From: Escherichia coli
Lineage (GTDB): Bacteria; Pseudomonadota; Gammaproteobacteria; Enterobacterales; Enterobacteriaceae
NCBI RefSeq assembly: GCF_003790525.1
Contig: NZ_CP033636.1
Reading direction: 5' to 3' (one strand)
Length of the DNA stretch: 64,000 nt
Within the stretch, counting starts at the first letter, position 1; each line of letters opens with the position of its first letter. This document shows positions 60,201-64,000 of the stretch, piece after piece. A program made the position numbers.

Positions 60201-63200
60201 TCTTTAGGAACTATTATGCTTCTTGATAATACCGGGAATATGATTCCATCAAACCATCCTTATTTTGAAGTCATCTCAAAAGCATGTATAAATGGAGTGC
60301 GTGACTTTGTTCGTCAAAACCCGTGGGTAGTCTGACGGTCAACTATAAAGCATAATATAATTAGTAATAACAAGGAACAGACATGAATGAAAACTCAGTA
60401 ATCTTAATAAGTTTATTTTGGTTTTTTTTGGGATCGAGTGTTGTAGCTGGTTTTATGGATGCATCATTATATTGCTGGATTTTTGCAGCCATAAGCGCAT
60501 TGTTTCTTCTTTCGGTGATACAAACACCAAAGGAGTTAACGGTATCTATTAGTCATATGACAAGCAAAACGCTGATCTCAAAGACAGATGATGGATACAC
60601 ATTTAGCATTTCACCTTACGGAGACGGGTACCGCTTATCAGTCTCGCCTGAAAATCGTCACAATGGTACCCAAAGCTTTGACGGCTGGTTCCCACGTTTT
60701 TTTTCCGAACCACAGTATGCCAAATCATCTTTAACTAAATTTCTCGGTGAGTCCTTAGTATGGGAAGAAGATTCAAGTAATGCTCTATGAGATTACTTAT
60801 TATAAATTTTTCTATTAATCTCCATGGAGTGATATATGAATTTGGCCTATTTTTTATTTTTGTCTATAACTGTTATGCTTACGAGCTTTATTATTAAATC
60901 ACTTGTCGTATTGGTAAAGTTCAAATTACTTCGTGATGAACGTCTCGAATATACCAGCAATAAAAATATTGATGAGATGTACGATTTAATGAATGCGAAG
61001 GAAGAAATCCTCATAAGGCATCATAAGCAGATGTTGGCATTGCATCTTTCACTATTAATATTCGTTCTATTTATTGCTTACATTTACTAAAAATAATTTT
61101 ATTCAACATTTCAACAAAGGGTTTTCAATGGAAAGCTTCGAAACTGAACAAATGATTCAATATGCTTTCTACATAAATATCGTAATAACGACTGGTTTGG
61201 CATGGTTTTGCTTGCGGTCAGGATTGCATTACAATTTTTTCAGAAAAGCAGAGAGTGCCAGAACAAAAGGGCTGAGTAGTACCTCTACTGAACACGGTCC
61301 AGCAATAGTGAGACTAAAGAAGCTACAAGCATTAGTAGATTTTATTAGTAACTGTGCTTTTCTAATCCTTTCAATTGGCACAGCTTATATTTTGTATGTT
61401 TGGAGCCACAGTTAACTCATACGAGGTAACTTCGGCAGGTAACAACTTCTAATGCAGGACTTTAATAACTCTAAGGGATTCTACATGAAAAAAGACGATC
61501 TAATTACGCGTTGTAAATTACTTAAAGGCGAACGCGATGAGTCTATCTTTACCATATTAATTGGGATAGTAGTAAAGCTGGGGCTGGTAGGCCTGGCATT
61601 CTATCTGTTGCTTGGTTCCACGATTGATTGGTCAAGCTGGAAAACTTATGCCGCCATGTTGATCTTGGGAGCATTTCTCTAAAATCTTGAACCTTTTTTC
61701 ACTCATTACAAGCCATGACCTAGTGCGTAGATCATACGATCTTTAAACCTTATGTCATTGATTTATAAGTACATATAACAAAGATTATGTTAAATACTGT
61801 ATGTATGTACAGCATCAACAGTTGCCCCCCTCATATTGAGGTAATTGCTACATTCATACCACTATTCTTCTTATAGTATCGACATCCTGAATTATTGCAC
61901 CCTACTGCTTTGTCTTTAGCTGTTCCGAATTAAAATTCATTGCTCAATTTGGATCACATGACGATCAGCGTATTCCTTTGCTTTATCAAAGTTAAGTTTT
62001 TAAAACATAAGATATGTAATGACAAATTCTCAATCTGATTTTCCTTTGAACGATCAAAATTTTCAGGCAGATTTGCTGAAAATCAAAAAGGTTTTCGCCG
62101 ACCTTATAACGCAGGCATCAGATGGTAAGATACCCATAAGGTCTTCTCATGTACACGGCTTACACCATTTCGAGGAGCTCTACATCCGGGCAAGAGCAGG
62201 CATGTGTTCGGTCCTGGGATATCCGGTCATGGTTGTTTCAACTATCTCAGTTAAAGAGCCCGGCACAGGCATTTTTAGAGCGCTTCTTGCAGAATTGAAA
62301 TGTATTGCAGATGAACAAAATTACATTTTGAAAATTGAAAATGTACTGCCTCCCCTATTCCGCAAATACCTTATTCAAGAAGGTTTTGTTTTCCCAGGTG
62401 AACCTTGGATGTGTGGTTCCGGCTATTGGTTTAAGAACCCACAAGTACTTCATGAAAATATTGAGTTATTATCTGTTTAAGTCGATCTAACAATTTCACT
62501 GGAGCTAACATGTCCCCGGAATTGGTATCAGACATTGCAAGAGTGGCGCATGAAAAGCTACTTTCAATTTTAACGGAGTGCGGCATAGAGAAGACGGCAG
62601 GCACTTGCCTTTTTGCAAGCTATCTTGTGTGTTATTTAGCAAAAACTAAAGGTCTAGATGCTGTTGTCCGTGGGGGTAACGGTGCAGATGATGGCGGTAT
62701 ATTTATAGAGTGTGGTGGCTTTGGCCATTATTGGTGTGAGTTGAATTTCGAAGAAGTGCAATATTATATTGACATCACTTCCGAACAGTTTGGGTTTCAT
62801 CCATACATAGTGAAACTCGCCAACGATATAACAGGATGGCCTCGATATATTCCTGGTGATCAGGAAACGGTCGATAGTCATTTAGAACAATTATTACGCG
62901 ACGGCTATACAGAATAGGCTGCGTATACCCTATCGCAGCCTTTCAGGCTCTTAACCCTTGTGACCTGTTAACGGAACCACTCAGGATGACGCTGCCGATC
63001 AACTTTGATAACCTGCGAATTAAATTCAACGACATCCGCTGGAGTAAGCATTAATTCATCAGGATTTACAATAAATGGTCTTAAAACCACTTCGCCACCG
63101 TCTTCTTTTGCACCGTAGATATTAATAAGAAAGTGCAGTCGTTGATTTCCTTCAGCATTGCGTTGCCATTCTCTAAAAGTCAAAGTTTGTTTAATATAGT

Positions 63201-64000
63201 TTGTTAAAAGAAATGCGAATTCAGATTCTTCCGTTTGTGAGATACCGATTTTGTTAGACATTTTTTTTAGTATCTTTCCGAGCATGGACACACAGGCATC
63301 TAGACTTAACGATGTTGAAATTTTGGTCGTATTAAAATCCTCCTGCGAAAGTGAAATCATCCATGTATTATCTTTATGATAGTCGGTAATATAAATAAAA
63401 TGAGATGTAAAAGGCGTTGAGTGATTGAACTCTCCTAAGTTCCATCCATACTGACTCACTGTATTTGAGCTAAGTTCTTTGTCGGTAATGTTCATAATTC
63501 ATACCTTTCGATAAAGTCTGTAATGATAATTAGCTATCTCAAAGGACCAGAACAACTCTTGAAATAACCACACTCGAAGAATTTATCATATTGAACACCC
63601 CTACCTAATAACCTTGCCGACTTAATAAATCACAATAGCCCTCCCCTGACATTTTAAAATGCTACTTGAATTTTTGATAGCTTATGGTTGTTTTATGTTC
63701 TTTGTGATACGCATATGTCATCTTCTCTTTCCAGTACCAATCTTGTAGATCCTGCAAGTCTAGCCCATTTTTCTCACGTATGCTTTCGTGTAATTCGCTA
63801 AGCGCGAGTTTATCATTAGGTTTATAAATGGCTAATTTTTCTTCAAATAAATCCAGCCAACGTTTCCCCATCTTACGACGCAAAACAAACACCATCGTGA
63901 TAAATGTAATGAAATGCACAGCAATTAGTTCCAACTTATGCGATTGCTGACCAGATAAAATTACTATTGTAACAACAGGGATGGCCGTATATAAAGCAAT

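Follow-up and report, generated by a model that had tools for sequence, protein, structure and literature searches.

Plasmid leading regions carry anti-defence islands (PMC11541004, a paper that mentions neither IncHI plasmids nor DUF1173 or DUF4942), and such islands, like the nin and early regions of phages, hold short, AT-rich ORFans with a fast turnover. Here we describe a stretch with the same features at positions 60383-63934 of a 64,000-nucleotide piece of the Escherichia coli contig NZ_CP033636.1 (assembly GCF_003790525.1); this whole piece is called the window below, and all positions refer to it unless another record is named. The likeness of its open reading frames (ORFs), named A to H, to the described regions extends to a neighbouring orphan methyltransferase and nuclease and to small modifying enzymes among the ORFs. 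A leading-region position could not be shown for the stretch, which lies beyond Tra2/par, and no known anti-restriction, anti-CRISPR or SOS-inhibitor family was detected in it.

Comparison with related plasmids shows that the cluster is a patchwork of genes gained and lost separately, and not a single unit. Our preferred explanation, to which we give a probability of roughly 45%, is that it is an AT-rich, variable accessory stretch of the IncHI2 backbone that consists of three separable pieces and serves plasmid establishment or host manipulation. The first piece is the row of small genes after nuc-P298, namely A3 (here fused to a membrane anchor), B, C and D, with a membership that changes by lineage; the second is the E-F pair, which would code for two small cytoplasmic enzymes and has, in the window lineage, a putative LexA operator upstream; and the third is the convergent ORFans G and H. 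A role of these accessory genes in modifying the host or in establishment is a best guess, which we hold with low confidence. The features are the following (aa, amino acids; TM, transmembrane; SD, Shine-Dalgarno sequence):

58921..59436, plus strand: thermonuclease gene (SNase, nuc), annotated as such, with NCBIfam EcnA/NucI and PHROG endonuclease matches
59439..60335, plus strand: P298, hypothetical protein of 298 aa, directly 3' of nuc
60383..60790, plus strand: ORF A, 135 aa, in-frame fusion of A' and A3
60836..61090, plus strand: ORF B, 84 aa, two TM segments with a charged linker; GGAG SD
61128..61415, plus strand: ORF C, membrane protein, 95 aa from ATG 61128 (113 aa from TTG 61074)
61485..61682, plus strand: ORF D, hydrophobic, 65 aa from the annotated start at 61485 (76 aa from ATG 61452)
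61795..61814, D-E spacer: LexA box-like palindrome TACTGTATGTATGTACAGCA, found by consensus search
62019..62480, plus strand: ORF E, 153 aa, predicted minimal GNAT fold
62510..62917, plus strand: ORF F, 135 aa, predicted transglutaminase/papain-like protein with Cys33-His73-Asp88; GGAG SD; 29 bp past E
62968..63495, minus strand: ORF G, 175 aa, soluble ORFan annotated as hypothetical, convergent with F
63662..64000, minus strand: C-terminal part of ORF H, whose start lies beyond the window end, at about 64048

The AT-richness noticed in the initial annotation is pronounced: 60383-63934 has a GC content of 0.374 where the whole window has 0.490, and no lower value was seen when about 240 sliding windows of equal length were compared. 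Our ORF scan recovered every ORF of that annotation at the same position, and the two convergent ORFs closing the cluster are G and H, both on the minus strand. The four small ORFs had been described as membrane proteins, and Kyte-Doolittle hydropathy profiles do show TM segments in A to D, with the reservation that ORF A is a deletion-made fusion and not a native gene. In the same type of scan no TM segments were seen in F or G, and the one borderline stretch in E is a predicted beta-strand. An SD at normal spacing precedes A, B, C, D and F; E is without one.

All cluster ORFs are annotated as "hypothetical protein", and in most records B and C are skipped by the NCBI pipeline. That none belongs to a recognised family is borne out by sequence-level searches of NCBIfam, PHROGs, Pfam, PADLOC and PDB: ORFs A to H had no family match in NCBIfam, PHROGs or PADLOC, where the SNase was the only gene matched; Pfam gave nothing for E, F, P298, G or F2 (a gene adjoining E in relatives); and phmmer against PDB gave nothing relevant for E, F or G. 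The sole result of an Rfam scan of 58500-64000 was a chance snoRNA match, and literature searches on the IncHI2 leading region and anti-defence, on IncHI2 with LexA and on TglA returned nothing specific to the cluster genes.

A mosaic stretch of the IncHI2 backbone

IncHI2 plasmids count among the major vehicles of multidrug resistance, and of mcr-1, mcr-9 and tet(X4), in E. coli, Salmonella and Enterobacter. A segment of 4.7 kb around the cluster was matched in 1,156 plasmid records, 657 of which match by at least 99%, and in 284 of 5,426 complete E. coli genomes, nearly always on large plasmids. Most of the matching records, which come from E. coli, Salmonella and Enterobacter, are conjugative replicons with a size of 150-370 kb (200-300 kb among the full-length matches listed). 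They contain ter, hipBA and the trh/htd transfer genes, and the R478-like comparator record is typed IncHI2A / MOBH / MPF_F. The stretch is therefore conserved IncHI2 backbone and not a plasmid-foreign island. The initial annotation had considered that the ORFs might be conserved backbone genes with annotated functions; conservation across IncHI2 is what we found, and an annotated function is not. In this respect the finding is mostly an ordinary one, that of hypothetical accessory backbone genes, which more than 1,000 sequenced plasmid copies carry unannotated. In an R478-like plasmid, about 10 kb of sequence, with cargo genes for metal and colistin resistance, separates the cluster from the Tra2/partition region.

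The comparators included L002 (R478-like, IncHI2), L003 (IncHI1-like), L007 (IncHI1-type, NZ_CP044958.1) and L004 (Logan SRR5240522 contig). With respect to L002, ORF A is an in-frame fusion created by a deletion of 530 bp. At the same place R478-like plasmids have three ORFs, of which A' codes for 104 aa with three TM-like stretches, A2 for a TM protein of 85 aa and A3 for a soluble protein of 77 aa; the segment L002 8216-8745 is missing at window position 60550/60551, with no microhomology at the junction, and its loss removed the end of A', the whole of A2 and the 5' flank of A3. Residues 1-56 of ORF A (60383-60550) are thus the two-TM N-terminus of A', with two TM-like segments within the N-terminal 50 aa in the Kyte-Doolittle profile, and from 60551 onwards the frame is that of A3, whose own ATG is at 60557. 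A3 is a separate ORF in L002, L003 and L004, and its L003 version is 62% identical in the tblastn match and 58% in the full-length alignment. The fusion has the SD AAGGAA and a promoter-like site at 60332-60361.

The three small ORFs that follow differ in their distribution. ORF B gave tblastn matches in 1,097 plasmid records (1,046 at a level of at least 99%), in most of which it is unannotated; the two IncHI2 lineages do not differ in its sequence (100% identity), it is restricted to IncHI2, and no diverged homologue was found for this ORFan. ORF C, with a strong C-terminal and a weaker N-terminal TM segment in the Kyte-Doolittle profile, has a homologue at L003:3864-4163 with 33-34% identity (tblastn E 1e-12; blastp 32.5%, E 2e-15). 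Its start is most likely ATG 61128 and not TTG 61074, because this diverged homologue and other gene callers begin there; C is called as 95 aa in 446 member sequences. C and L003_99 are also the only related pair among the small TM proteins compared (B, C, D, A', A2, H and those of L003). ORF D has a long hydrophobic stretch (18-47) and a hydrophobic C-terminus, and its amino acid identity between the two IncHI2 lineages is 86%. Within the 1,134-bp A3-D block, 21 of the 28 substitutions fall in the 245 bp of 61423-61667 (L002 9618-9862), which cover D and sequence upstream of it, a divergence spike that could be a recombination boundary or the result of diversifying selection on D. The slot after C is hypervariable, and in L019 a lipoprotein-like ORF replaces D. 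In L004, positions 5048-6399 contain a partial A2 followed by A3, B, C and D that are 99-100% identical to the window, flanked by SNase, P298 and E genes with 23-50% identity; this block is either a recent cassette-like exchange of the small ORFs or a chimeric assembly. L018 might have been taken for a diverged lineage; with 98.3% identity and 64 gaps, it belongs to the window lineage, carries indels from assembly and was left out.

Gene turnover is equally evident downstream of D. In the R478-like record, homology to the window ends right after D, where a 91-aa ORF and a sulP-usp-ars island are found; E is absent, F is kept (93% aa identity) beyond the island, and G is truncated by IS26. This absence of E with retention of F was seen in detail in one R478-like record, and about 424 R478-like records carry the R478-type D allele. 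In the R478-like/mcr-9 lineage (L002 10018-16053, L006 1-2346, NZ_LC532224.1), the D-E spacer and E are replaced by the 91-aa ORF, a sulP-usp-arsCBRH island, an ISNCY element, two small ORFs and a serine protease gene. In L008 and L009 the order is F2 (158 aa)-E-F-G, with identities of 89% for E and 95% (aa) for G; homology to the window starts at 61997, 22 bp before the E ATG, and therefore the window spacer 61685-61996 is lineage-specific. It is absent from the R478-like, L008/L009, L003 and L004 loci. L003 has F2, an intact E and F; L004 has E and then F2, without F; and L010 and L011 have an F at 39% identity among unrelated neighbours, without E. In L007 (6686-7159) E is chimeric, its last 65 residues being E-like and its N-terminal 92 unrelated, and the adjacent F is intact; a Shedu nuclease gene and ISNCY/IS1/IS903 elements lie just upstream of this chimeric E.

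The initial annotation had likened the layout to toxin/immunity, bacteriocin-like or abortive-infection loci. No such family was returned by searches of PADLOC, NCBIfam, PHROGs, Pfam and PDB, and the idea of a cohesive locus finds no support in the relatives, in which F occurs without E, E occurs with another neighbour, the slot of D varies and the ars island splits the cluster. The stretch is better regarded as a hotspot of gene turnover than as a system, which tidies its annotation. Usable lineage markers are the deletion of 530 bp, whether E is present, and the spacer with the LexA box.

Selection on the ORFs

Purifying selection acts on E, F, A3 and C, as seen from the rates of non-synonymous (dN) and synonymous (dS) substitution. 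For E, dN/dS is 0.33 against L009 and 0.17 against L003, and for F 0.30 against the R478-like plasmid and 0.69 against L009. Against L003, dN of P298, A3, C and F is 0.32-0.62 (0.62 for C) with synonymous sites saturated, which marks these four as clearly constrained, and full-length alignments of E, F, A3, C and P298 still show 34-58% protein identity after synonymous saturation. D and G are weakly constrained, as judged from few substitutions: dN/dS is 0.60 for D against the R478-like plasmid, from 15 substitutions, and 0.78 for G against L009, from 12. 

These data bear on the view that the cluster is evolutionary debris, that is, AT-rich remnants silenced by H-NS (in particular the A fusion, B, D, G and H) that hitch-hike on the plasmid. 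ORF A is indeed a deletion product, and B and C usually go unannotated. Most of the differences that separate the two IncHI2 lineages in P298, A, C and D are non-synonymous substitutions, and the dN/dS of D and G is in the range of 0.6-0.8. Insertion sequence (IS) elements and islands insert freely, and an H-NS paralogue is encoded nearby. On the other hand, E, F, A3, C and P298 have remained conserved past synonymous saturation, and the catalytic triad of F is invariant in 45 family members. Furthermore, all four small ORFs have a properly spaced SD, and D and G have too few substitutions for neutrality to be established. B, D, G, H and the fusion ORF A may plausibly be decaying, but not E, F, A3 and C; as an account of the whole stretch we regard it as unlikely, if far from negligible.

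ORFs E and F

Structure modelling indicates that E is a minimal GNAT-fold protein. The model has the mixed alpha/beta fold of the GNATs, and its closest solved structure is the anti-CRISPR protein AcrVA5 (PDB 6iuf); the GNAT toxins TacT and AtaT also match, and sequence identity to the matched structures is 10-19%. At the sequence level, Pfam gave no match to E even at E <= 10, and no NCBIfam GNAT model matched it. The suggestion in the initial annotation of an acetyl-CoA-binding-like ORF therefore holds at the level of the fold. The motif A region reads V-K-E-P-G-T-G-I-F after the strand VMVVSTISV, its first position not being Q or R, and residues G82, G84 and F86 are invariant in 5 homologues. 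E differs from the GNAT superfamily at large in having a long N-terminal helix and an invariant C-terminal MCGSGYW, without a link to a described GNAT motif. Its family is small, with 11 matches among 5.8 billion proteins, and is confined to IncHI-type loci. By its modelled fold, E would be an acyltransferase.

The match to TacT and AtaT raises the question whether E-F is a toxin-antitoxin (TA) or addiction pair, in which E would acetylate aminoacyl-tRNA, as a GNAT toxin of the TacT, AtaT or KacT kind, and F would neutralise it, or the reverse, with the effect of stabilising the plasmid. We consider this quite improbable. Known GNAT toxins follow an RHH/DUF1778 antitoxin gene, and E differs from the TacAT, AtaRT and KacAT systems in having no such partner: upstream of it is a 336-bp non-coding spacer in the window and F2 in relatives, and the Pfam and NCBIfam searches were empty. 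Neither are E and F obligate partners, since F occurs without E in the R478-like record, its homologues stand alone in L010/L011 and in phage and plasmid contexts, and in L004 E is accompanied by F2 instead of F, while in L007 E is chimeric next to an intact F.

ORF F corresponds to the ORF for which a conserved Cys...His pattern had been noted, and this pattern turns out to be part of a Cys-His-Asp triad that is invariant and sits on a transglutaminase-like fold. In the structure model (pLDDT 87.6) F has a papain-like core, with a nucleophile-bearing N-terminal helix on an antiparallel sheet, and its structural neighbours are all papain- or transglutaminase-like, among them arylamine N-acetyltransferases, factor XIII, TG2/TG3, protein-glutaminase, SpvD, PMT and Ceg10. 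The closest solved structure is Atu2299 (PDB 2hly), and TglA, LapG (BTLCP) and SseI also match. 2hly belongs to Pfam PF09641 (DUF2026), which is papain-like with Ser replacing the catalytic Cys (PMC10318531); F differs from it in having Cys at this position. Compared with the periplasmic LapG and with the secreted effectors, F is a bare domain of about 135 aa without a signal peptide. The model thus suggests that F is a Cys-His-Asp hydrolase or transferase of the transglutaminase/papain-like type, and the fold gives both ORFs a label for annotation, mini-GNAT for E and transglutaminase-like Cys-His-Asp protein for F.

A profile search of 1.84 billion representatives yielded 268 clusters of the F family at E <= 1e-3, mostly stand-alone proteins of 130-165 aa. 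In 45 members with 23-54% identity, C33, H73 and D88 are invariant, as are G55-G56, G72, W75, Q93-F94 and Y113. F itself matches no Pfam model, and a PDB profile search with the family was empty. Among the 45 members, Pfam gave 2 weak matches to Transglut_core (the best with 2.4e-3, ranging up to about 1e-1), one to Transglut_core3 and one to Tox-PLDMTX. Foldseek searches of AFDB placed the family in Salmonella, Citrobacter, Xenorhabdus, Morganella, Pseudomonas, Burkholderia and Klebsiella, some entries being labelled automatically as "transglutaminase-like". The contexts sampled for family members were a phage nin-type region, islands of small hypothetical ORFs and a plasmid-like Xenorhabdus contig with several TA systems and an H-NS gene. 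Two members, P0109 and P0166, are fused to an N-terminal S-adenosylmethionine (SAM)-methyltransferase-like domain. In addition, P0138 has a Cys-rich C-terminal extension (CxxC ... CxxC), and one of the 45 has a weak Lar-like restriction-alleviation match in Pfam. The methyltransferase-like fusions, the Cys-rich extension and the Lar-like match are hints of a role in mobile-element conflict.

Among the more distant structural neighbours of F is the lasso-peptide protease McjB. Maturation of a lasso peptide or microcin was rejected as a function, because no cyclase, precursor or exporter is present. F2 (L003 6866-7321, L004 8660-9070, L008 87-563, L009 245-721), which adjoins E in relatives and is absent from the window, codes for 136-158 aa with the motifs ECDGHT ... 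PHLW ... DYRLRMW and has no Pfam or NCBIfam match. Sequence comparison does not support homology of F2 to F: the hhalign probability is 0.1%, and only the order and spacing of C, H and D are alike.

The surroundings of the cluster could also suggest a plasmid-borne anti-phage defence or abortive-infection island. A dcm methyltransferase gene and the thermonuclease gene nuc are located upstream of the small ORFs, HNH genes lie in the neighbourhood, a Shedu nuclease gene has been inserted nearby in relatives, and a low GC content and variability are typical of defence islands. Yet PADLOC (PADLOC-DB v2) gave 0 matches for A to F and H and a partial one for G (PDC-M24A, E = 0.0094), and no NTPase, nuclease, TIR, SIR2 or other effector-like domain was found in any ORF. 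F-family genes also sit in an early/nin region of a phage, a setting more in keeping with counter-defence or takeover. We give a slim chance to a defence island.

The LexA box and a possible role in establishment

With up to 3 mismatches tolerated, a search with TACTGTATATATATACAGTA, the LexA consensus of E. coli, gave no site in 100 shuffles and two in the whole window. The first, TACTGTATGTATAAACAGTA at 13022-13041, matches the consensus at 18 of 20 positions and lies 20 bp upstream of a umuD-like gene (peptidase S24, 12568-13002), which forms a minus-strand operon with a umuC-like gene (Y-family polymerase, 11325-12584); it thus serves as a positive control for the search. The second is the palindrome at 61795-61814, with 17 of 20 consensus positions and 3 mismatches. 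It sits in the D-E spacer, and E-F is the next plus-strand unit. The palindrome is similar to that of LexA-regulated plasmid genes such as the umuDC/mucAB-type operon of the window itself (17/20 versus 18/20); in contrast to the site of the umuD-like gene, only about 20 bp away from it, the box is 205 bp upstream of E, and it is found in one lineage only and has no convincing promoter. No terminator-like site is present between the box and E-F, nor between E and F. E and F are probably co-transcribed, given the gap of 29 bp, the SD of F and the lack of a terminator-like site between them, and control of E-F by LexA through this putative operator is plausible from the sequence.

An SOS box next to several small hydrophobic ORFs could instead point to a bacteriocin- or microcin-like locus or to an SOS-induced membrane toxin, in which the small ORFs would be immunity proteins, lysis proteins or type I toxins and the box would govern their expression as it does in colicin operons or for tisB/dinQ. 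Minus-strand promoter-like sites that overlap the box, antisense to the 3' end of D, would fit this, as would the presence of McjB among the neighbours of F. However, 60383-64000 contains no ORF of more than 175 aa and thus no toxin of colicin size, no lipobox lysis gene, no lasso cyclase or precursor and no match to a bacteriocin family. For a type I toxin, Rfam gave no antisense RNA family, and promoter-like sites occur at chance frequency. The SOS type I toxins TisB and DinQ have fewer than 30 aa, and D, with 65 aa and two hydrophobic stretches, is larger. Moreover, the spacer with the box is missing in lineages that keep A-D. We see a very slim chance for this explanation.

We return to our preferred explanation, that of accessory establishment or host-manipulation genes such as mobile elements gather at sites like this one. 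Here the products of E and F, possibly acting in anti-defence, would each make a covalent change to some macromolecule, belonging either to the host or to a competing element, and LexA would hold E-F off until an SOS response, for example that elicited by single-stranded plasmid DNA entering a new cell. Several observations weigh against it. Firstly, a leading-region placement was looked for in the R478-like plasmid and not shown, the cluster being beyond Tra2/par. Secondly, the box is 205 bp from the E ATG, no box was found upstream of E or F homologues in the other lineages examined, and no good plus-strand promoter was found adjoining it. The best promoter-like hexamers at the box are on the minus strand (61811..61784 and 61758..61731), facing the 3' end of D, and the number of promoter-like matches across the region, 17, is no higher than the 17.1 of shuffled sequences. 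Thirdly, some of B, D, G and H may be decaying or unexpressed, as they show little or no measurable constraint. Finally, no experiment or sequence-family match ties any of the ORFs to a function.

A bolder and distinctly unlikely version is that E and F, together with the F2 of relatives, are founders of new mobile-element enzyme families, switched on by SOS at entry, that covalently inactivate a component of host immunity or of the stress response. By analogy with AcrVA5, which acetylates Cas12a, E might then acetylate its target, and F might cleave, deamidate or acyl-transfer in a thiol-dependent way. If this were true, the F family, with its 268 clusters on plasmids, in island-like loci and in phages, would represent a widespread new class of counter-defence or host-takeover proteins. 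Should E and F prove to aid establishment in new hosts, they would become targets of work to understand the IncHI2 host range and possibly to restrict it, and a function would be at hand for the unclassified F family on many mobile elements.

At the edges of the cluster, the full-length H (PGAP coding sequence L001:16363-16749) has 128 aa and two N-terminal TM segments. On the other side, nuc, whose product has a signal-peptide-like N-terminus, is the first gene of the conserved nuc-P298-small-ORF array, and its synteny is kept in L003 and L004. P298 is without a Pfam or NCBIfam match and may be a functional partner of nuc. It is conserved in L003 (53% aa identity, dN 0.42 with dS saturated) and weakly so in L004 (23%), and its N-terminus contains a Cys-rich stretch (CPTC ... 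C).

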